Shown here: positions 18,874 to 48,079 of the stretch, in pieces
Numbering within the stretch: position 1 is the first letter of the stretch
Layout: each line of letters begins with the position of its first letter
Assembly: GCA_964452875.1 (NCBI GenBank)
Contig: CAYVNG010000001.1
Span: 2,786 to 66,785 of the forward strand
DNA: 64,000 nucleotides
From: an uncultured Candidatus Saccharibacteria bacterium
GTDB lineage: Bacteria > Patescibacteriota > Minisyncoccia > Minisyncoccales > CAYVNG01
Reading direction: 5' to 3'
Translations under genes and position numbers: made by a program
The notes under the pieces: generated by a model
Told to the model about the DNA's origin: nothing
Database searches by the model: none
What the model saw: the letters and a program-made list of their open reading frames with translations, nothing else

Positions 18874-20001
18874 ATGAAGACAGGCGTTGCCACAGTCCCT
18901 TTGGATTACGGAAGGTGCCCCAGGTGGCTTTTTGAAAGGATGAAAAGGCTTTCCAAAGGCATAACCACGGCCATTGTTGAGGAGTTCGGCCCGGAAGAAT
19001 TCCTGAAAAGAATGTCTGATCCTGTATGGTTCCAATCTTTCGGATGCGTCCTGGGTTTCGACTGGAACAGCAGCGGGCTTACCGTCACCACTTTGGGAGC
19101 CTTGAAAGCCGGACTTTTCGAGGTGCAGGACCATCTCGGCCTTTACGTCTGCGGAGGCAAAAGGACTTCAAGAGAGACCCCGACGGAGATTGAAGCTTAT
19201 GGGATATCCAGGCATTTCTCTTTCGCCCCGGACCTGATATATGCCTCAAAGATGGCGGCTAAAGTGGATTCCTCCTTGATACAGGATAATTACCAGATTT
19301 ATCAGCATAATTTCCTGTTCACCAAGTCCGGCAGCTGGGCGGTCATACAGCAGGGAATGAACACGGAAAACCAAACAGCGAGGCGCTATCACTGGCTTTC
19401 AGAGTCCCTTTCCAAGAAAAAAGAATTCATCGAAGAGCCCCATGCAGGCATCATATCCGGGGCCAGGGCTAGGCCGTTGAATCTGGTCGCCAAGGAAAGC
19501 GCAAAGAACAGGGAAGTGAGCGAGAAGATGGCGACCGAGGAAGCAGGCTCCTTTTTGAAAAACTTAAAGCTCATCCAGACCAAAAAGGAAAACAACCTCG
19601 TATCAATGAAACTCTACGATAAGGAGTTCTACTGGCATCCGGTCGTGGAAGAGAAGTTCGACCTGAAGCGTTTGGAAAGAACGGTTTTTTCCATAAAAGA
19701 AAGCGATCCCAAAGGATTCGAGGAGCTTTTGAGTCTTAAAGGAGTCGGCCCCAAGACCATAAGGGCCCTTTCCCTGGTTTCTGAACTGGTTTACGGAGCA
19801 ATCCCTTCGTACAAAGATCCGGCTAGATACAGCTTCGCCCACGGAGGCAAGGACGGCACCCCTTATCTCCCGGATCAGAAAGAAATGGACAAGACTATAG
19901 AGATTCTCGAAAGGGGGATAAAAAAGAGCCTGATTTCCATTAAAGAGAAGGAAGAGGCTGGAAAAAGGATCAGAAAAACCTTTTTATTGGAAAAGCCTTA
20001 A
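18874..20001 (+). CDS. DUF763-like protein with C-terminal helix-hairpin-helix
   Basis: N-terminus LDYGRCPRWLFERMKRL...WFQSFGCVLGFDWNSSGLTVTT recalled as the DUF763 signature; C-terminal HhH LKGVGPKTIRAL. Stop overlaps the Elp3 stop (TTAA). Confidence 0.5.
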   Translation: MKTGVATVPLDYGRCPRWLFERMKRLSKGITTAIVEEFGPEEFLKRMSDPVWFQSFGCVLGFDWNSSGLTVTTLGALKAGLFEVQDHLGLYVCGGKRTSRETPTEIEAYGISRHFSFAPDLIYASKMAAKVDSSLIQDNYQIYQHNFLFTKSGSWAVIQQGMNTENQTARRYHWLSESLSKKKEFIEEPHAGIISGARARPLNLVAKESAKNREVSEKMATEEAGSFLKNLKLIQTKKENNLVSMKLYDKEFYWHPVVEEKFDLKRLERTVFSIKESDPKGFEELLSLKGVGPKTIRALSLVSELVYGAIPSYKDPARYSFAHGGKDGTPYLPDQKEMDKTIEILERGIKKSLISIKEKEEAGKRIRKTFLLEKP

Positions 20002-21563
20002 TTGTCCAGGTTTTTAACCATGTAAGTGTCTCTCAAGTCGTATCCGAGTTTTCTGTAATATCCCCTTACGCCGATGCCGGATATGACGGCTATTTTTTTC
20101 GCCTTGAATTCTTTCTCGGCTATTTTTTCAGCTTCTTCCATCAGTCTTTTGCCGAGCCCGGTATGCTGGGGGGAATTTTTGTTCCTTTCTTTTTTTATCT
20201 CCTGGAGCTGGCCGTAAGTGTGTAATTCTCTTATCAAAGCAGCGCCATCGAGAATTTTGGAAACAGGATATTTGCTTTGCTTTCTCAAACGGAGAAGGCT
20301 GTAAAGCCTTTTCCGCTTTCTATCTTCCATAGTCAAAAAAACCTCCTTGCCGTTCGAAGCCGTGAAATCCTTTCTGAAAAGAAAAACCTTTTCATCAGAT
20401 TCGTAGGCCGACCTCACCTCCCTGCACCTTATGCATTTGCAGCTCCATTTTTCGTTTTTGATCTCCCTTCCGACCACCTGGCGGAGATTGGAGATGCGGG
20501 CCGGCCCGGCAGCTATGCTGCAAGAAGGGATGTCTCTTATAATCCTTTGGATTCTTACATAATATGGAACGATTTTTTTGATGCTTTTGATAAGATCTAT
20601 GGCCTGGCGGTCCGTGTAAACTTCATACTTTCCTTTTTTCCACCATTTGTGCAGCAAGGAGTTTTTCAAGATTGCAGTCGGATATATTTTCAGCCAGTCT
20701 GGCCTGAACCTTTGGTCAAGAAAGAGAACTTTGAACATCTTCACGTCCTTTTTAAGGTCAGATCCCGGAAGATTGGGCATCATCTGGTAGCAGACTTTGA
20801 ATCCCGTATTCTTGAGAAGCTCGGTGGCAAGGATCGTTTCTTCCACTTTATGACCCCTTTTGTTAATTTTCAAGACATCGTCAAAAAGGCTTTGGACTCC
20901 CAGCTCGACTCCTGTGATGCCGAGGCGTCTCAATCTTGTTATCTCTTCTTTCGTCACAAAATCCGGTCTGGTTTCGACCGATATCCCGATTATCCTGCTG
21001 CAGGATTTTTCGTTCTTTTTTTGAGCTATAAAGAGATTTTTTGAGAAAGACTTATTACAGGCGTCAAAGCATCTTTTAACGAACCAGGACTGATAATTTT
21101 TCGGATAAAAACTCCAGGTGCCTCCGATTATTCTCAGATCGATTTTATCTATAGGATGGCCTCCTTCCTTAAGAGCTTTCAATCTCATTTCGGTTTGTTT
21201 GAAAGGGTCGTATTTGTTCGAAACGGCCCTCATCACCGCAGGCTCGTTCTTAAGGTAGCTTTTGGGGGCCCCTTTTTCTGAAGGGCAATAAACGCATTTT
21301 CCAGGGCAAGGATAGGGCTTTGTCAGTACGGAAACGTTGACTATCCCTGAAAGTGACCTTATCGGCCTCACCCTCAAAAGGCGTTCGATTCTCAAGGACC
21401 TTTTGACCCTGGTTGTTTCGTGATAAGCTTTTAATAGCTCGCGGTTTGAAGGGCAGGGGATGCCGTATCTCTTGGCCGTTTCCCTTTTTATCCTAGCCAA
21501 ATCAGCCGGAGTTTTCGCTCCGGATCCATTTAATCTTTCGACTATTTTTTTCAATGCTTCCAT
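19998..21563 (-). CDS. elp3: Elongator Elp3 homolog (radical-SAM plus GNAT tRNA U34 carboxymethylation enzyme)
   Basis: Radical SAM CPGKCVYCP (Cx4Cx2C); Elp3-type central region; C-terminal GNAT acetyl-CoA motif (HTGLGKRLMEEAEKIAEKE...GIGVRGYYRKLGY). Confidence 0.85.
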   Translation of the reverse strand: MEALKKIVERLNGSGAKTPADLARIKRETAKRYGIPCPSNRELLKAYHETTRVKRSLRIERLLRVRPIRSLSGIVNVSVLTKPYPCPGKCVYCPSEKGAPKSYLKNEPAVMRAVSNKYDPFKQTEMRLKALKEGGHPIDKIDLRIIGGTWSFYPKNYQSWFVKRCFDACNKSFSKNLFIAQKKNEKSCSRIIGISVETRPDFVTKEEITRLRRLGITGVELGVQSLFDDVLKINKRGHKVEETILATELLKNTGFKVCYQMMPNLPGSDLKKDVKMFKVLFLDQRFRPDWLKIYPTAILKNSLLHKWWKKGKYEVYTDRQAIDLIKSIKKIVPYYVRIQRIIRDIPSCSIAAGPARISNLRQVVGREIKNEKWSCKCIRCREVRSAYESDEKVFLFRKDFTASNGKEVFLTMEDRKRKRLYSLLRLRKQSKYPVSKILDGAALIRELHTYGQLQEIKKERNKNSPQHTGLGKRLMEEAEKIAEKEFKAKKIAVISGIGVRGYYRKLGYDLRDTYMVKNLDN

Positions 21564-22320
21564 GAAAGAAAAAAGGGCCGAACAATTGCTAAAAGAGATT
21601 ACAGACTATTATAACCTGGAGGCAGATGAATTTTCAAGGACCAGGAAAGAACCCTGGCCAGAAATTGAATTTTTGTTCGACAGTCTCAACCTCGGGGAAA
21701 AGGTCTTGGATTTAGGTTGCGGCAACGGAAGATTCTTCCGTTTTTTCAAAAAAAGAAAGGTTGACTATTTTGGGACGGATGCTTCCCCTAAATTGGTTGA
21801 AATAGCAAAAAGGGAAAATCCTGGAGCAAGGTTTGAAACGGCAGACGCTTTGAATCTTCCCTTTCCGGGCAACAATTTCGATAAAATCTACAGCATCGCT
21901 GTTCTCCATCATATTCCATCATACGGTTTAAGGATGAAATTTTTGAAGGAGGCGGAAAGAGTGCTGAAACCCGGAGGCATTCTTGTATTAACCTGTTGGA
22001 AATTGCCGTTCAGGAAAATGGTTTTCTTGAATTTAAAATCATTGTTATCTAAAATATTTAAAAGGGAGGATATGGACAAGGGAGACGTCTTCGTTCCATG
22101 GCGGAAGAAGGCAAGAAGGTATTATCATATTTTTTCCGAAAAGGAATTGGGAAAAATTGTTAAAGAATCAAGGTTTACAATAGAAAAGTCTGGAATCGTC
22201 AAAAACGAAAAAAGGAACAGGCAGAATTTTTATATCGTTGCAAAGAAACAGCCCTCTGACTATTTGCCAGAGGGCTTGCGGGGCGAAATGGGACGAACTA
22301 CTTCCTCGATATTGAGATAA
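21562..22320 (+). CDS. Trm9/ALKBH8-type tRNA (mcm5U34) methyltransferase-like class I SAM methyltransferase
   Basis: Blocks recalled from yeast Trm9: EFSRTRKEPWPEIEFL (FSQTRYKPWPIV), VLDLGCGNGRF (GIDVGCGNGKY), SIAVLHHIPSY...VLKPGGILVLTCW (SIAVVHHWST...LRQGGQALIYCW), DVFVPWRKK...RYYHIFSEKEL (DVFVPW...YRYYHLYREGEL). Start ATG overlaps the Elp3 start on the opposite strand. Confidence 0.8.
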   Translation: MKEKRAEQLLKEITDYYNLEADEFSRTRKEPWPEIEFLFDSLNLGEKVLDLGCGNGRFFRFFKKRKVDYFGTDASPKLVEIAKRENPGARFETADALNLPFPGNNFDKIYSIAVLHHIPSYGLRMKFLKEAERVLKPGGILVLTCWKLPFRKMVFLNLKSLLSKIFKREDMDKGDVFVPWRKKARRYYHIFSEKELGKIVKESRFTIEKSGIVKNEKRNRQNFYIVAKKQPSDYLPEGLRGEMGRTTSSILR

Positions 22321-22583
22321 GAGCTCAAGGGTGGGATTCTCGTCCTGGGACATATTTTTTCGAGAAGTTTCTTCAGAGCCTTGAAGGCTTGGCGTTCTGA
22401 AGAAGCTGTGACATACTTTTCCTTGATCTCAGGTATCCCAGGAAGGCACCCTTTTATCAGGAAGAGTTTCTTTGGTTTTCTATTTTTCGTTACCAACTTT
22501 TACCTCCTTTTGATATTATACCAATAAAAAGCATTTTAGTCAAGTTAAAACGCTTCTTTATCTTTTCTCTTTAAATTGGTAAA

Positions 22584-23132
22584 ATGAATGTAATGAAATA
22601 TAAAATCGCAGTAAGCGGAGCTTCGAAGCTCAACACCTGTTCAAAAGGAATAGAAAAGCTGGCTGAGAATCTGGGGAGGGAAATAGCCAAAAGCGGGTCT
22701 GTCCTGATAACCGGAGCCACGACCGGAGTCCCTTATTATTCGGCCAAGGGCTGTAAGGAAGCAGGAGGGATAAGCATCGGATTCTCTCCCGCCGCCTCCC
22801 TCAAGGCCCACCAGAAGACATACAAGCTCCCTATAGATCAGTTCGACGTGATAGTCTTCACCGGATTCGACTACAGCGGAAGAAACCTTCTGATGACCAG
22901 GGCGGCCGACGCAGTGATCATCTGCTGCGGCAGGATGGGGACGCTGAACGAATTTACCATCGCATTCGAGGATAAAAAGCCGATAGGGATTTTGGAAGGA
23001 TCTGGAGGGACGGCAGATTCCATAAAGGATCTTTTGAGCAAACCGCATAGGAAGGCGGCTAAGATAGTTTATGACAGAGACCCCAAAAGGCTCGTTCAAA
23101 AACTGCTGGAGGTAGTTAAAAAAGGTCGTTAA
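22584..23132 (+). CDS. TIGR00725/LOG-like (SLOG Rossmann) protein
   Basis: IAVSGASK...VLITGATTGVPYYSAKGCKEAGGISIGF...ADAVIICCGRMGTLNEF matches the TIGR00725 layout (GGxxGVM, GGxxIGI, ADAVIAxxGGxGTLSE). Confidence 0.55.
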   Translation: MNVMKYKIAVSGASKLNTCSKGIEKLAENLGREIAKSGSVLITGATTGVPYYSAKGCKEAGGISIGFSPAASLKAHQKTYKLPIDQFDVIVFTGFDYSGRNLLMTRAADAVIICCGRMGTLNEFTIAFEDKKPIGILEGSGGTADSIKDLLSKPHRKAAKIVYDRDPKRLVQKLLEVVKKGR

Positions 23133-23151: not shown

Positions 23152-23409
23152 ATGCCGGACAAAAAAGAAAAATTAGTCGGCGAAATAACCCATTACTTCG
23201 GGAATATAGGAGTGGCAGTGATAAAGGCCTCAGACAAGATCAAAGTGGGGGACACCATCCATGTGGTTGGGGGAGATGCTGATTTTACCCAGGAAGTGGA
23301 TTCCATGGAAGTTGACCACCAGAAGGTGAAGGAAGCCAAGAAAGGAGCGGAATTCGGGCTGAAGATCGACCAAAAAGTGAGGGAAGGATACCAGGTTTAC
23401 AAGCCCTGA
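23152..23409 (+). CDS. EF-Tu domain-2-like small beta-barrel protein
   Basis: 85 aa; GEITHYFGNIGVAVIKASDKIKVGDTIHV...EVDHQKVKEAKKGAEFGLKID..VREGYQVYK resembles the translation-factor-like small protein family. Confidence 0.5.
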   Translation: MPDKKEKLVGEITHYFGNIGVAVIKASDKIKVGDTIHVVGGDADFTQEVDSMEVDHQKVKEAKKGAEFGLKIDQKVREGYQVYKP

Positions 23410-35219: not shown

Positions 35220-38200
35220 ATGGATCTGAATTTTCCCAAAATTGAAGAGAAAATCCTGAGATTTTGGCGCAAGGACGACACTTTCAAAAAGAGCGTAAAG
35301 CAGAGGAAAGATGCCCGTAGGTTCGTATTTTTTGAAGGGCCTCCCACTGCCAACGGCAGGGCCGGAATACACCACATTCTGGCAAGAATCTTCAAGGATG
35401 TCATCTGCAGGTACAAGGCCATGCAGGGCTTTAAGGTTGAAAGGAAAGCCGGGTGGGACACCCACGGCCTTCCGGTCGAGCTCGAGGTTGAAAAAAGGCT
35501 CGGGCTGAAGAGCAAGAAGGAAATAGAGAAATACGGGATCGCCAAATTCAACAAGCAGTGCAGAAAGTCGGTCTGGCTTTATCAGCAGGACTGGGAAAAA
35601 ATCACCGAAAGGATAGGGTTTTGGGTGGACATGGAAAATCCTTACATCACTTACAAGAACGGCTATATCGAGTCGGTCTGGAGCATTTTGAAAAAAATCA
35701 GCGAAAAAAATCTCGTCTACCAGGATTACAAATCGGTTCCTTACTGCCCGAGGTGCGGCACGGTCCTGTCCAGCCACGAAGTCGCTTTGGGCTACAAAAA
35801 GGTGAAAGACCCGGCAGTCTACGTCAAGTTCAGGCTCGAGGATGAAGAATCAACCAGCCTGCTCGTCTGGACGACCACTCCCTGGACGCTGCCCGGTAAT
35901 ACCGGGATTGCCGTGAATCCGGATTTCGTTTATGTGAAAGCGAAGTTTGGTGACGAGAAACTGATTTTGCTCAAAGAAAAGATCCACATCCTCGGAAATG
36001 AAGTTGAAGCGTCAGAAGAAATCAAAGGGAAAGACCTTGTCGGCCTGAAATACCTGCCTTTTTATCCCTCTGAAAAAGCGGTCAGCCAGGGAAGCAATTA
36101 CAAGGTGATAGCGGGGAGTTTCGTCTCCTTGGAGGACGGCACGGGACTGGTCCACATAGCCCCGGCTTTCGGGGAAGAGGACCTGGAAGTGGGCAAGAAA
36201 AACAACCTTCTGGTCTTGAAAACGGTTGACGAAGCAGGCAGGATGACGACCCCAGGATACGCCTGGGACAACCTTTTCGTGAAAGAAGCAGATCCGATGG
36301 TCACAGAGGATCTGGAAACAAAAGGCCTGCTTTTCAAGAAAGAAGATTATGAGCACGATTATCCTTTTTGCTGGAGATGCGGATCCCCATTGCTTTATTA
36401 TGCGAAGCAGAGCTGGTTTATAAACATGCAGAAGGTGAAAAAACAGCTTATTTTAAATAATGAAAGGATAAACTGGGTCCCTTCGCATTTGAAAGAAGGC
36501 AGGGTCGGAGAATGGCTCAGGGAGGTCAAGGACTGGGCCTTTTCCAGAGAGAGATACTGGGGGACTCCGCTGCCAGTATGGGAATGCGATAAATGCAAGA
36601 AAAAAATATTCATCGGCGGAATGGCAGAATTGTCCTCGCAGAAAGCCAGTAAGAACAATTTTTATTTCATCAGGCACGGAGAGTCTTTAAGGCAGAAAAG
36701 GAGAATATCTGCGTGCTTCCCAGAGAAGCTGCGCTGTCCCTTGACTCCAAAAGGAAGAAAGCAGGTTGAAGAACAGGCAAAGAAGTTAAAAGCCAAGAAG
36801 ATCGACCTTATCTTCTCTTCCGATCTTTTAAGGACCAAAGAAACAGCCGAGATTATAAGCAAGGAGATCAAGGTGAAACCCGCATACGACAAAAGGCTGC
36901 GGGAGTATAACGCCGGGATTTTCAACGGAAAATCGGTAGACCTAATCCATTCATATTTTAAGAACGACCTGGATTTGAGGTTCAAGAAAAGGATCCCCAA
37001 AGGGGAGAGCTATACCGACCTCCAGAGAAGGATGCACCAGTTTTTGAAAGAAATCAATGAAAAATACGAAGGGAAAAATATTCTGGTGGTGAGTCATGAG
37101 ACGCCTCTGACCTTGCTGGAAGCAGCTCTCAAAGGGATTCCCAAAAAGGAATTTTTCGCTTTCAGGGAAAAAAATAAGCTCGAGGTGTCAGAATTTAAGA
37201 AAGTTGAATTCAGAAATTTCCCATACGACCTCGATATGGAAATAGACCTTCACAGGCCGTACGTAGACGAAATCGAATTTTACTGCTCTTGTCAGAAAGG
37301 GAAAATGAAGAGAGTAAAAGAGGTCATTGATTGCTGGTTTGATTCAGGCTCCATGCCTTTCGCCCAGGCCCATTGGCCTTTTGACCAGAAGGATGGGTCA
37401 AAAAAGCCTCCCGCGCTTTTTCCGGCAGACTACATCTCAGAAGCGGTGGATCAGACCAGGGGCTGGTTCTACACTCTGCATGCCATCTCAACTTTGCTTA
37501 ATTTCGGCCCGGCATACAAAAATGTTATTTCCGTCGGCCACATTTTGGACAAGAAAGGAGAAAAGATGTCAAAGTCCAAAGGCAATGTGGTGAATCCCTG
37601 GCAGATGATTTCGATATACGGGGCCGACGCCGTGAGATGGTATCTCTTCACTTTGAACCAGCCCGGTGACTCCAAGCTTTTTTCGGAAAAAGATCTTTCC
37701 GAGTCGCTCAGAAGGTTTGCAATGACTTTCTGGAACTGCGCAAAGTTTTTTGAAACTTATAGGGCCGAAGCTTCGAAATCTCCAAAAAACGTCAAAAATC
37801 TTCTTGACAAATGGATTCTGTCCAGGCTGAGCTTTGTCGAAAGATCAGTCGGGAAAATGATGGGAGAATACGACGTCACTTCCGCGGCCAGACTGATAGA
37901 GAATTTCGTCATAGAAGACCTTTCTTTGTGGTACATCAGGAGGTCTCGAAGGAGGTTTCAGAAGCCGGAAACGAAAGAGGAGCTGCAGGAAGCAGCTTTT
38001 GTGCTGGAAGCCGTGTTGAAGGAGGTATCTCTGATCTTGGCTCCTTTCGTCCCTTTCTTGAGCGAAAAAGTCTACAGCATGGCAGGGGGGAGAAAAAGCG
38101 TCCACCTTGAAGATTGGCCGAAGAATATTGGTAAAAGGGAAGATAAGAAGCTGGACGAAAGTATGAATCTGGTAAGGGAAGTGGTGAAACTCGGTCTCAA

Positions 38201-38693
38201 AATCAGAGCTTCTTCCGGATTGAAGCTGAGGCAGCCTTTGAGCGAGTTAAGATTCCGCATCAAGGGAACGGTTCTTGGAAAAGGGCTGGAAGGCCTGATT
38301 AAAGAAGAACTGAATGTAAAAAAGATAAAATCAGCGAAGACCATGCCCTCTGGCCGCTTTTGGAAAAAAGAAGAAAGCGGGAAAATCAATGCCGCCTTGA
38401 ATGTCGAGATGACCCAAGAGCTGAAAGAAGAAGGGGAGGTAAAAGAAATTTTGAGATTTGCTCAGGAAATGAGGAAAGAAGGCGGTCTTAAACCGAAAGA
38501 CAGGATTGAGATATATTATTCCGGGAATTTTGAAATCAGCAACATAATTAAAAGAAACAAAGATATCATTTTGAAGGAAACCAAGGCGCAAGGACTTTTT
38601 GAAGGGAAAAAGCCGGGAATGGGGTATAATATAGAAAAGGAGGTAAAAGTCGACAGCCGAACCATTTGGTTGGGCATAAAAAAGGTCAAATAA
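35220..38693 (+). CDS. ileS: isoleucyl-tRNA synthetase (type 2) carrying an inserted histidine-phosphatase domain
   Basis: PPTANGRAGIHHI (HIGH region), CP1 editing domain (TTPWTLPGNTGIAVNP), WAFSRERYWGTPLPVWECDKC, DCWFDSGSMP, KMSKSKGN, and an IleRS type-2 C-terminus. 1157 aa because of the internal insertion. Confidence 0.9.
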   Translation: MDLNFPKIEEKILRFWRKDDTFKKSVKQRKDARRFVFFEGPPTANGRAGIHHILARIFKDVICRYKAMQGFKVERKAGWDTHGLPVELEVEKRLGLKSKKEIEKYGIAKFNKQCRKSVWLYQQDWEKITERIGFWVDMENPYITYKNGYIESVWSILKKISEKNLVYQDYKSVPYCPRCGTVLSSHEVALGYKKVKDPAVYVKFRLEDEESTSLLVWTTTPWTLPGNTGIAVNPDFVYVKAKFGDEKLILLKEKIHILGNEVEASEEIKGKDLVGLKYLPFYPSEKAVSQGSNYKVIAGSFVSLEDGTGLVHIAPAFGEEDLEVGKKNNLLVLKTVDEAGRMTTPGYAWDNLFVKEADPMVTEDLETKGLLFKKEDYEHDYPFCWRCGSPLLYYAKQSWFINMQKVKKQLILNNERINWVPSHLKEGRVGEWLREVKDWAFSRERYWGTPLPVWECDKCKKKIFIGGMAELSSQKASKNNFYFIRHGESLRQKRRISACFPEKLRCPLTPKGRKQVEEQAKKLKAKKIDLIFSSDLLRTKETAEIISKEIKVKPAYDKRLREYNAGIFNGKSVDLIHSYFKNDLDLRFKKRIPKGESYTDLQRRMHQFLKEINEKYEGKNILVVSHETPLTLLEAALKGIPKKEFFAFREKNKLEVSEFKKVEFRNFPYDLDMEIDLHRPYVDEIEFYCSCQKGKMKRVKEVIDCWFDSGSMPFAQAHWPFDQKDGSKKPPALFPADYISEAVDQTRGWFYTLHAISTLLNFGPAYKNVISVGHILDKKGEKMSKSKGNVVNPWQMISIYGADAVRWYLFTLNQPGDSKLFSEKDLSESLRRFAMTFWNCAKFFETYRAEASKSPKNVKNLLDKWILSRLSFVERSVGKMMGEYDVTSAARLIENFVIEDLSLWYIRRSRRRFQKPETKEELQEAAFVLEAVLKEVSLILAPFVPFLSEKVYSMAGGRKSVHLEDWPKNIGKREDKKLDESMNLVREVVKLGLKIRASSGLKLRQPLSELRFRIKGTVLGKGLEGLIKEELNVKKIKSAKTMPSGRFWKKEESGKINAALNVEMTQELKEEGEVKEILRFAQEMRKEGGLKPKDRIEIYYSGNFEISNIIKRNKDIILKETKAQGLFEGKKPGMGYNIEKEVKVDSRTIWLGIKKVK
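36660..37259 (+). other. about 200-aa PGAM-type histidine-phosphatase domain inserted in-frame in IleRS
   Basis: FYFIRHGESLRQ (RHGE catalytic His), LTPKGRKQVEEQAKKL, SSDLLRTKETAEII, EYNAGIFNGKS, VVSHETPLTLL (second His). Lies between the Zn knuckle (WECDKC) and WFDSG of the synthetase core. Confidence 0.75.
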
Positions 38694-45636: not shown

Positions 45637-47157
45637 ATGGGAGAGAAATTCTATATAACCACGAGCATAGCTTATACCAACGCCCCTCCGCACATAGGGT
45701 ATGCCTTGGAATCCGTGCAGGCGGACGCCATCGCCCGCAGCCAAAGGATGGCGGGGAAAGACGTTTTTTTCTTGACTGGGACCGACGAACACGGGCAAAA
45801 GATAGCGACAGCCGCCAAAAGCCACAACATTGATCCCCAGTCTTTCGTTGACGGCATTTCCAAAAAATTCCAAGGCCTAAGGCAGTTGCTGAACCTCTCT
45901 ACGGACAGCTTCATCAGGACCACTGACCGGAAAAGGCACTGGCCCTCGGTCGAGAAAGCGTGGCTGGAATTAGTAAAGAACGGGGACATAGTGAAGAAGA
46001 AATACAAGGGATTTTACTGCGCAGGCTGCGAAGCCTTCGTCACTGAAAAAGACCTGGTCAAGGGGAAATGCCCGATCCACGGTAAAGAGCCGGAATCCTT
46101 GGAAGAAGAAAATTATTTTTTCAGGCTTTCGAAATATTCAAAAAAACTCGAAGAAATCATCGAAAACGACGCGATCAGGATAATTCCCTCTTCCAAAAAG
46201 AACGAAATGTTCCAATTCATCAAAAGCGGGCTCGAGGACGTTAGTTTTTCTAGACCGAGGAAAAATCTGGAGTGGGGGATTCCCGTCCCGGGAGATTCGT
46301 CTCAGACCGTCTATGTCTGGGCCGATGCACTGGTAAACTACGTGTCCGCCATAGGGTACGCGGAAAATTCCGATGATTTCAAAAAATACTGGCCGGCCGA
46401 CGTCCATTGCGTGGGGAAGGATATCCAGAAGTTCCATTGCCTGATCTGGCCTGCCATGCTTTTGTCCTTGGGGTTGGAGCTGCCAAAATCTGTTTTCGTG
46501 CACGGATTCATCACCGCAAACGGGCAGAAGATGTCCAAATCCCTGGGGAACGTGGTCGATCCTTTCGAACTGGTGGAAAAATACGGAACAGACCCTGTCA
46601 GATATTTCCTGCTCAGGGAAATTCCCCAGACCGAGGACGGGGATTTCAGCTATGAGAAAATGGAAGCAAGATGCAACGGCGAATTGGCGAACGGAATAGG
46701 GAACACATTGAGCAGGGTGCTGACGCTGATCGAGAAAAAATGCGGAGGAGAGATCTCTGGCCCTGGCAGAGGAGAAAACCAGCTCAGAGATTTTTTGGTC
46801 TTCGAGGTTTTGCCGAATTCCCAGTGCGGAAGCGGTTTTGATTTCAGCCTCGCTCTTTCCAAGATTGCGGAGGCTTTCAAGATGATAGACCGGGAGATAG
46901 ATCAAACAAAGCCTTGGGAATGGGATTCAGAAACCGCCCGATCAAACCAGTATTTCTATTCCTGGACGGCTTCGATAAGGTTTTTGGCTTGTTTATTGCT
47001 TCCTTTCATCCCGGGATCGGCAGAAGAGATTCTAAAGCAGCTGGGCTTGGATCCTGAAGAGGAGAAAAAGGACGTTATAAGGAAGGGGATCGTCTGGGAG
47101 GATTTGAAGCCGGGACAGAAAATCAGAAAGGGAAAAATCTTGTTCCAGCGCTTTTGA
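45637..47157 (+). CDS. metG: methionyl-tRNA synthetase
   Basis: [18 protein letters not shown] (HIGH), Zn knuckle CAGCEAF...[13 protein letters not shown]. Confidence 0.9.
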
Positions 47158-48079
47158 TTCTGAACTCCACGTTTTTCTCGTTCCTTGCCTTCAGGGAATA
47201 ATATTTGGTCAGTCTTTCGGCCTCCTCAACGGCCGTTTTTTCAATTAAAGGATCATTTTTTCCGTACTGCCTGACCAGGGTCATCGGTCCTTTGTATTTT
47301 TTCATTTCAACCAAAACGTCTCCTTTTTCAGCCGTTTTTCTGAGCAGCGAGTTTTCTTCTTTGTTTCTCCCGACGACGATCAGGCATTTTCCCTTGCAAA
47401 AATGCCTTCCGATTTTTGCCAAAAAAACGTCGCTTTCAGAGAATTCTTTACAGAAAGAGTTGATTATTTTCATCCTCTTGGAGAATTCAGGGTCGGTAAG
47501 CAAGCACCCTCCAGCCGGATTCGGATATTGCTTGATTTGATATTTTTCAGTCAGCTCAATTTGTTTTTTCCTTGATTTTCCGCATATCATCAGCAGTTTT
47601 TCCCTTTCCACCTGCCCCGATTTTTCAGGAATCGTTTTTTCCAAAAGCTTTGCTGAAAGCGGTCTTAAAAGAAAGCCTTCCAAACAGGATTCTTTTTCAA
47701 TAGTCTGCATCGCTTCTCTGTTCTGGCTCATAGGTCTTTGGCCCAGCACTTCTCCGGTGGCCACGAATCCGTATTTTTCTTTTCTCATTATTTCTTTGGC
47801 TTTTTTGAGCATCAATATCCTGCAGTCGATGCAAGGATTCATCCCTTTTCCGTATCCGAAAAGAGGGGATTTCAGCATTCCGAGATGCGCTTTCGATATG
47901 TCAATTGTCCTGTGTTTCAGTTTCAGCTGTTCGGCTGATTTCTCCGCCTTTGCCGAGTCAAAAAAACAGCTCTTGAATATGAGAGCTGTGACGCCTATCC
48001 TCTGTTCTTCCAGGATTTTAGCCGCCAGCATCGAATCCAATCCCCCCGAGAACAAAAGCAGGGCCTTGGTCCGTTTCAT
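47123..48079 (-). CDS. ThiI-like PP-loop ATPase (tRNA sulfurtransferase family) without a THUMP domain
   Basis: PP-loop SGGLDS at residues 11-16; [13 protein letters not shown] matches the ThiI ATGESLGQVASQT; C-terminal extension with CxxC-like cysteines. Confidence 0.55.

Follow-up and report, generated by a model that had tools for sequence, protein, structure and literature searches.

HvoTrm9-Trm112 of Haloferax volcanii has been shown to make 5-methoxycarbonylmethyluridine (mcm5U), and clustering of the genes for Elp3 and Trm9 has been noted in Sulfolobus solfataricus. The known Trm9 enzymes need Trm112 (Letoquart et al. 2015; a 2017 review; the Haloferax work). For bacteria, the 2017 review reports that homologues of the methyltransferases that partner Trm112 are not detectable, and a 2020 review confines bacterial Elp3 to Dehalococcoides and sees no evidence for 5-carboxymethyluridine-type modifications (xcm5U); a paper of 2026 credits 'numerous bacteria' with Elp3. 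Our full-text search of the literature returned no paper on Elp3/Trm9 in Patescibacteria or the candidate phyla radiation (CPR), and none describing a bacterial Trm9. We analysed a 64-kb stretch of DNA (64,000 nucleotides; the window) labelled as an uncultured Candidatus Saccharibacteria bacterium, in which the genes for Elp3 and for a Trm9-type methyltransferase (MT) lie head to head. It is likely that the two form an archaeal/eukaryotic-type wobble-uridine module in a Patescibacteria-like bacterium, which would make 5-carboxymethyluridine at tRNA position 34 (cm5U34) and then mcm5U34. A preliminary description of the locus had proposed such an (m)cm5U34 module and had called Trm9 essentially eukaryotic; the Haloferax enzyme and the Sulfolobus gene cluster contradict the latter. 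The two genes and their junction are as follows (positions are those of the window).

19998–21563, minus strand: Elp3 gene, 521 amino acids, predicted stand-alone radical-SAM/GNAT carboxymethylase of tRNA U34 (TIGR01211 and PDB matches)
21562–22320, plus strand: gene of the Trm9-type S-adenosylmethionine (SAM)-dependent methyltransferase, 252 amino acids plus stop, conserved core at residues 1–231
21561–21564, both strands: CATG palindrome in which the divergent start codons of Elp3 and MT overlap by 2 nucleotides (nt), with no intergenic region

The minus-strand open reading frame (ORF), as judged from its sequence, is a genuine, full-length Elp3, as had been claimed. It matches the NCBIfam model TIGR01211 with 558.2 bits (cut-off 350), residues 7–519 of 521 covering model positions 2–522, and both the Elp3-specific central domain and the GNAT domain are present. 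Its best matches in the PDB are Elp3 of Methanocaldococcus infernus (MinElp3; E = 5e-130) and of Dehalococcoides mccartyi (DmcElp3; E = 1.5e-119). From the N-terminus to the C-terminus, its parts are:

21360–21563, minus strand: basic N-terminal extension, residues 1–68, archaeal-like, 19 of the first 69 residues being Lys or Arg
20757–21308, minus strand: radical-SAM domain (Pfam PF04055), residues 86–269, with iron-sulfur (FeS) cysteines C86, C90 and C93
20457–20702, minus strand: central Radical_SAM_C domain (Pfam PF16199, 73.7 bits against a cut-off of 31.9), residues 288–369
20424–20441, minus strand: predicted Zn-binding cysteines of the linker, C375, C377 and C380 in CKCIRC, residues 375–380
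20037–20171, minus strand: predicted acetyl-CoA site of the GNAT/lysine acetyltransferase (KAT) domain, with QHTGLG at residues 466–471 and Y502

From residue 13 onward, the N-terminal extension can be aligned to MinElp3; the alignment to DmcElp3 begins only at query residue 69. The Elp3 N-terminus is reported to be important for tRNA binding (PMC6367351; 2020 review); the Pfam model ELP3_N matches the extension weakly (22.8 bits, below the cut-off of 27). The FeS motif CPGKCVYC (nt 21285–21308) is spaced Cx3Cx2C, not Cx4Cx2C as first described. All 60 full-length Elp3 ORFs of related loci (57 on bacterial-labelled contigs, the window's own and 2 on archaeal-labelled contigs) share this spacing, as does Dehalococcoides Elp3. 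The linker Zn cysteines are conserved in bacterial and archaeal Elp3 and are typical of the prokaryotic enzyme (PMC6367351). Pfam GNAT models match residues 465–509, each below its own cut-off, and the DmcElp3 pocket residues K77, K193, E386 and Y441 correspond to K140, K256, E446 and Y502 of the window Elp3.

Pfam and NCBIfam match the MT only generically, as a class I methyltransferase (Methyltransf_11, Methyltransf_25 and Methyltransf_23, with Methyltransf_11 at 81.6 bits), and its family assignment therefore rests on comparison with the PDB, residue mapping and gene context. The best PDB sequence match by phmmer is Trm9 of Yarrowia lipolytica (5cm2_Z), which aligns over the full length with E = 2e-18 and 70 bits; the runner-up chain reaches 46 bits, 24 bits lower. 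A profile built from 30 MT sequences again places 5cm2_Z first (82.5 bits, compared with 70.5 for the next chain). With an AF2 model of the MT (predicted local distance difference test, pLDDT, 88), Foldseek also ranks 5cm2_Z first (TM score 0.84 on the target, 28% identity), although fold similarity by itself does not discriminate among class I methyltransferases. By these sequence comparisons the MT is classed as a Trm9 orthologue. The automatic annotation at JGI names many of its homologues 'tRNA (uracil-5-)-methyltransferase TRM9' or ALKBH8 and others UbiE.

Named bacterial families were tried and rejected. The best NCBIfam match of the MT is to the DVU_1556 family with 61.5 bits against a cut-off of 155, followed by UbiE/MenG (47 against 158), BioC (44 against 185) and CmoB (25.6 against 209).

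The four Trm9 blocks named in the preliminary description are all present in the MT (FSRTRKEPWP, AVLHH...KPGG...TCW, DVFVPW and RYYHIFSEKEL). The functional positions within and around them are:

21610–21660, plus strand: predicted N-terminal substrate-binding helix and motif, Y17...FSRTRKEPWP, in which Y17 and R28 correspond to ScTrm9 Y18 and R29
21703–21729, plus strand: predicted SAM-binding motif I, VLDLGCGNG, in which D50 corresponds to ScTrm9 D72
21907–21912, plus strand: His pair H116/H117, equivalent to ScTrm9 H115/H116, predicted to position the carboxylate and uracil O4
22084–22128, plus strand: DVFVPW...RRYYH blocks, in which W180, R186 and Y188 correspond to ScTrm9 W168, R241 and Y243
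22225–22227, plus strand: N222, equivalent to ScTrm9 N271, predicted to recognize uracil O2/N3

Letoquart et al. (2015) mapped the ScTrm9 residues on which activity depends or for which binding of the cm5U carboxylate or the uracil is proposed, namely Y18, R29, D72, H115, H116, W145, W168, R241, Y243 and N271. All ten are kept in the window MT, as Y17, R28, D50, H116, H117, W146, W180, R186, Y188 and N222, respectively. At seven of the ten positions, 88% or more of 81 MT homologues have the conserved residue, and the motif I aspartate D50 is invariant in the homologue alignment.

The Chloroflexota MTs (L056–L082) keep the equivalents of ScTrm9 R29, H115, H116, W145, W168 and R241. Their equivalent of Y243 is Val, Ala or Cys, and that of the uracil-reading N271 is Gly, Ser or Ala; these differences could stem from a shifted alignment or mark a genuine change in how the substrate is recognized. 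The window MT also carries a C-terminal tail of about 21 amino acids (PSDYLPEGLRGEMGRTTSSILR; window 22255–22317) that the aligned homologues lack and that has low pLDDT in the model. The tail runs through a hairpin at 22276–22250 and looks like read-through after loss of an ancestral stop codon.

When GTDB was scanned with one genome for each species, 356 relatives of the MT were found, and the flanks of the best 80 of these were studied. Many Patescibacteria lineages and Chloroflexota (Anaerolineae) are represented, and the closest MT homologues belong to Parcubacteria, Paceibacterota and Nealsonbacteria. The 80 also include four archaeal-labelled contigs, two with other bacterial labels (Thermoanaerobaculia and Myxococcales), a 'Nitrosomonadaceae' contig whose MT is nested among those of Chloroflexota, an unplaced 'Candidatus Multivorans' and nine Gammaproteobacteria-labelled contigs whose MTs group with Patescibacteria. 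An Elp3 gene lies within 6 kb of the MT gene in 71 of these 80 other species-level loci, in the following arrangements.

Elp3 directly upstream and divergent: 55 of 80 loci
Elp3 divergent, 0.4–2 kb away: 9 of 80 loci
Elp3 co-directional and adjacent: 2 of 80 loci
Elp3 on the same strand, about 4 kb away: 5 of 80 loci
No Elp3 found: 9 of 80 loci, 4 of which have too little flank to tell

The pairing of Elp3 with the MT is far beyond chance. In the directly divergent arrangement (55 pairs), the two starts are separated by a median of 25 nt, as extrapolated from tblastn coordinates; the gap is at most 15 nt in 25 pairs, and the start codons overlap in 10. Pairwise distances of Elp3 and MT over 60 loci are correlated with r = 0.90, a value reached by none of 999 Mantel permutations, and such a correlation is what co-inheritance would give. 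The idea that bacterial Elp3 is rare, put forward at the outset, does not hold within Patescibacteria and Chloroflexota.

Clustering of all flanking ORFs of the loci revealed no third conserved partner gene. Next in size come 'families' of shadow ORFs that run antisense to Elp3. One of these, an ORF of 255 amino acids on the plus strand of the window (20277–21044), recurs in 36 loci and is most simply explained as a reading frame held open by the conservation of Elp3 on the opposite strand, not as a gene.

Taken together, the family model matched by Elp3, the PDB ranking of the MT, the ten conserved residues and the conserved pairing point to Elp3 acting with a Trm9-type carboxyl methyltransferase in (m)cm5U34 formation, as the preliminary description had it. 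The two outcomes named there as contrary to it, an MT of generic type that lacks the Trm9 blocks and an Elp3-like ORF that lacks the central domain, were not observed. By analogy with the characterized archaeal and eukaryotic enzymes, from which both chemistry and product are carried over, Elp3 would work alone, without Elp1, 2, 4, 5 or 6. It would cleave SAM at its [4Fe-4S] cluster, draw an acetyl group from acetyl-CoA in the GNAT domain and put a carboxymethyl group on C5 of U34, which yields cm5U34. In the second step, the Trm9 orthologue from the divergent gene would use SAM to methyl-esterify the carboxyl group, giving mcm5U34; the equivalents of ScTrm9 R29 and H116 would position the carboxylate, and those of N271 and H115 would read the uracil.

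Several points weigh against this reading. In archaea and yeast, cm5U can also be diverted to 5-carbamoylmethyluridine (ncm5U), and the end product may vary between tRNAs. Neither Pfam nor NCBIfam returns a Trm9-specific family for the MT, for which the shared fold is not decisive by itself. Trm112, which the known Trm9 enzymes need, was found neither in the 64-kb window nor in the 80 flanks. We found biochemical or nucleoside data for no bacterium that has the pair, and according to the 2020 review xcm5U has never been shown in bacteria.

The last point also favors the alternative that survives best, in which the two genes are coupled but the chemistry or end product is not canonical mcm5U. 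The MT might act on another Elp3-derived side chain, or the main product in vivo might be ncm5U or some other derivative, with methylation restricted to a few tRNAs, and Chloroflexota might differ further, as the altered residues at the ScY243 and ScN271 positions of their homologues would allow. In addition, Haloferax trm9 and trm112 mutants lack cm5U and contain an unidentified species, and the bacterial DmcElp3 is very weakly active in vitro (2020 review). Nevertheless, the window MT keeps every residue proposed for binding of the cm5U carboxylate and the uracil ring, and the window Elp3 has the full archaeal-like N-terminus that DmcElp3 lacks. We therefore regard a product other than mcm5U as improbable and prefer the sequential formation of cm5U34 and mcm5U34.

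The host of the pair is a bacterium, and a Patescibacteria-like (CPR) one. The window contains tmRNA, SmpB, IF3, L20 and L35, and a public contig with the pair encodes the last four too. JGI/ENA metagenome contigs encode the same proteins as the window, one of them with an Elp3 copy that is 99.6% identical, and they further encode SmpB, IF3, L20, L35, S20, RuvABC, RelA/SpoT, ParAB and many aminoacyl-tRNA synthetases. With a GC content of 0.435, the pair lies near the lower bound of the values across the window (0.43–0.49). In a neighbor-joining tree of the MTs, three archaeal sequences are sister to all bacterial ones, and Chloroflexota and Patescibacteria each form approximately a clade; the tree is a rough one, rooted on Yarrowia Trm9, with few outgroups and without support values. 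Synteny in relatives, ordinary GC content and this tree argue against recent import into the genome, and the recent horizontal acquisition of the pair that had been suggested is not supported. Instead, Patescibacteria and Chloroflexota appear to have inherited the two genes together, as a unit of long standing.

Recent import from archaea, or archaeal contamination of the contig, would agree with the finding that, among solved structures, an archaeal one is closest to the window Elp3. Likewise, the archaeal-labelled MTs L050, L052 and L055, which stand apart from the bacterial ones, are about 35% identical to the window MT, as close to it as some Patescibacteria and closer than Chloroflexota, and one 'Pacearchaeota' contig has a near-identical arrangement. 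However, the bacterial markers named above include ribosomal proteins on a public contig that also has the pair, the GC content at the pair lies within the window range, and many related species have the two genes in synteny. Moreover, the bacterial MTs form their own Patescibacteria and Chloroflexota clades, the 'Pacearchaeota' MT falls inside the former, and the Elp3 and MT distances co-vary, all of which leaves recent import or contamination very improbable. Least probable of all, and already largely refuted, is that the MT is a methyltransferase of generic type (UbiE/SmtA/BioC-like) for small molecules or proteins, without a link to tRNA and only incidentally next to Elp3: all of its Pfam and NCBIfam matches are generic (Methyltransf_11/25/23, UbiE, BioC and ArsM, with those to NCBIfam far below their cut-offs) and some sources call its homologues 'UbiE', but three methods agree on Trm9 as its closest relative of solved structure, it retains the N- and C-terminal blocks specific to Trm9 along with 10/10 functional residues, and the adjacency to Elp3 is held in 71/80 species across phyla.

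The 'Pacearchaeota' (DPANN) contig, L014 (DAOPTN010000030.1), has an Elp3/MT pair with an MT that is 41% identical to that of the window and nests inside Patescibacteria in the neighbor-joining tree; this pair reflects either mis-binning or a CPR–DPANN transfer. The MT tree likewise puts nine 'Gammaproteobacteria' metagenome-assembled genomes inside Patescibacteria, which makes their taxonomic labels look unreliable, and the 'Saccharibacteria' label on many of the nearest loci of Patescibacteria type is just as doubtful.

A partner for the MT was sought in two ways, and both agree with the earlier statement that no Trm112-like gene lies nearby. Neither Trm112 (PF03966) nor MnmE or MnmG occurs in the precomputed Pfam annotation of genes on contigs that cover most of the window (all except approximately 11.7–13.2 kb), and among the window's called genes with that annotation, MnmC is absent as well. 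Two motif scans, one for the [C/D]PX[C/D]...CxxC signature and one for a YPI.DGIP-type motif, covered six frames of the window and the ORFs of the 80 flanks and found no small Trm112/YcaR-like ORF; the only signature matches lie inside leucyl-tRNA synthetase (LeuRS) and a POR subunit. No Trm112 fusion is evident among the 80 flanks.

At the hydrophobic Trm112-contact positions of Yarrowia Trm9 (YlTrm9), the Patescibacteria MTs have Lys or Arg in place of V59 and mostly Asp, Glu or other polar residues in place of F78. The E100 position is Arg in the window protein and Lys or Arg in 16 of 41 Patescibacteria sequences; in yeast, the complex is broken by N89K together with L91R, at the site of this position. 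As the contact positions vary in the four archaeal sequences too, the contact-residue case for independence from Trm112 is suggestive only. The MT may act as a stand-alone enzyme without Trm112.

A more far-reaching proposal, which we consider doubtful, is that a self-sufficient, Trm112-independent Elp3/Trm9 module predates the divergence of Patescibacteria and Chloroflexota and replaces MnmE/MnmG, and that the zero-spacer head-to-head layout reflects coupled expression of both steps. If it were true, Patescibacteria and Chloroflexota would decode with archaeal/eukaryotic-type mcm5U34 or its 2-thio form (mcm5(s2)U34), and the xcm5U pathway would either be ancestral to both prokaryotic domains or have undergone a very early inter-domain transfer.

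The layout of the pair depends on the start assigned to the MT. The mechanically listed ORFs are 19998–21563 (minus strand, 521 amino acids) for Elp3 and 21460–22320 (plus strand, 286 amino acids) for the MT. The divergent pair was correctly described from these, but the listed MT start at 21460 needs correction; since every one of the 29 aligned homologues starts with the Met encoded by the ATG at 21562 (30-sequence alignment), the gene spans 21562–22320 and encodes 252 amino acids. Both start codons are backed by homologue alignments, and near-zero spacing recurs in related species. With no intergenic DNA between Elp3 and MT, their expression must be unusual: the zero head-to-head spacing means that each promoter must sit within the coding sequence of the partner. 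One such site, a consensus match only, is:

21608–21637, minus strand: promoter-like site for Elp3, TTGAAA-18-TATAAT, 11/12 matches, inside the MT coding sequence

At the other end of Elp3, the sequence TTAA (19998–20001) is common to its stop codon and to that of the convergent DUF763 gene (18874–20001). Elp3 is thus bounded at both ends by palindromic codon overlaps, CATG at the start and TTAA at the stop.

A gap of 264 nt follows the MT gene on its 3' side and contains, on the minus strand, a promoter-like site with a strong consensus match (TTGACT-17-TATAAT with an upstream TG; 22543–22515). Together with the terminator-like hairpin on the same strand near the MT 3' end (22276–22250; feature region 22250–22583), it brackets an ORF of 78 amino acids (22260–22496, minus strand) that is conserved only in contigs of the same organism. 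Neither Rfam nor Pfam gave a match in the gap, and the ORF has no Pfam match; it may be a small gene or a small RNA.

Directly downstream, 22584–23132 (plus strand) encodes a SLOG/LOG-like protein (LDcluster4, 129 bits), and 23152–23409 (plus strand) encodes an 85-amino-acid protein resembling Peptidase_U32_C and EF-Tu domain 2 with counterparts in 15 related loci; no connection of either protein to the pair is apparent. Farther away, 47123–48079 (minus strand) encodes a 318-amino-acid protein that combines a PP-loop ATPase (ThiI and tRNA_Me_trans HUP matches) with a C-terminal NFACT-R_2 RNA-binding domain and is a candidate tRNA thiolation enzyme, a conceivable source of the 2-thio group in an mcm5s2U. 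The product of 35220–38693 (plus strand) is a class I aminoacyl-tRNA synthetase of 1157 amino acids with an unusual insertion, a His_Phos_1 (histidine phosphatase) match between two tRNA-synt_1 matches, and with a DUF5915 match after its anticodon-binding domain.

The window locus and its approximately 70 counterparts present a complete Elp3 and Trm9 pair that is conserved across two bacterial phyla and from which mcm5U is to be expected in bacterial tRNA. Although the orthology of both enzymes to known ones is clear, specialists would be surprised by mcm5U in bacteria and by a Trm9 that may do without Trm112. The pair offers small stand-alone enzymes, which should express in E. coli, for the study of Elongator chemistry and of Trm9 without Trm112. 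It also provides a marker for two questions, namely how split codon boxes are read in CPR bacteria and whether the pathway is older than the separation of bacteria from archaea.

Compared with described systems, the window pair is a bacterial representative of a known pathway, one that automatic annotation has flagged and for which we found no describing paper. Bacterial MnmE/MnmG(-MnmC), which make 5-carboxymethylaminomethyluridine and 5-methylaminomethyluridine (cmnm5U/mnm5U), likewise target C5 of the wobble U34 and serve the same bacterial decoding role, but their enzymes, cofactors and side chain are unrelated to those of the pair. CmoM (SmtA) of E. coli is a class I methyltransferase that methyl-esterifies the carboxyl group of a wobble-uridine side chain, converting uridine 5-oxyacetic acid (cmo5U) to its methyl ester (mcmo5U). 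The partner gene of the window MT, in contrast, is Elp3 and not CmoA/CmoB; a CmoM-like reading of the MT was rejected, with no CmoM chain recognized among 53 PDB sequence matches and CmoB, at 25.6 bits against 209, the only match from the cmo pathway. DmcElp3 resembles the window Elp3 in being bacterial, stand-alone and equipped with the FeS motif CPGKCxYCP, but the window enzyme has about 63 additional N-terminal residues. For DmcElp3, our literature search, which did not cover the 2016 structure paper, found no published methyltransferase partner.

Eukaryotic Elongator (Elp1–6) with Trm9/ALKBH8–Trm112 shares both catalytic folds and the functional residues with the window pair, which itself is without accessory Elongator subunits, AlkB/RRM domains and a detected Trm112. 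From archaeal Elp3 and Trm9(-Trm112), the pair differs in its bacterial host, in the Cx3Cx2C spacing of the FeS motif (Cx4Cx2C in Methanocaldococcus Elp3) and in its strictly head-to-head layout with almost no spacer and no Trm112 found nearby or fused. With this archaeal system it nevertheless shares a stand-alone Elp3, a Trm9 orthologue, clustered genes, a long basic N-terminus and the three Zn cysteines.

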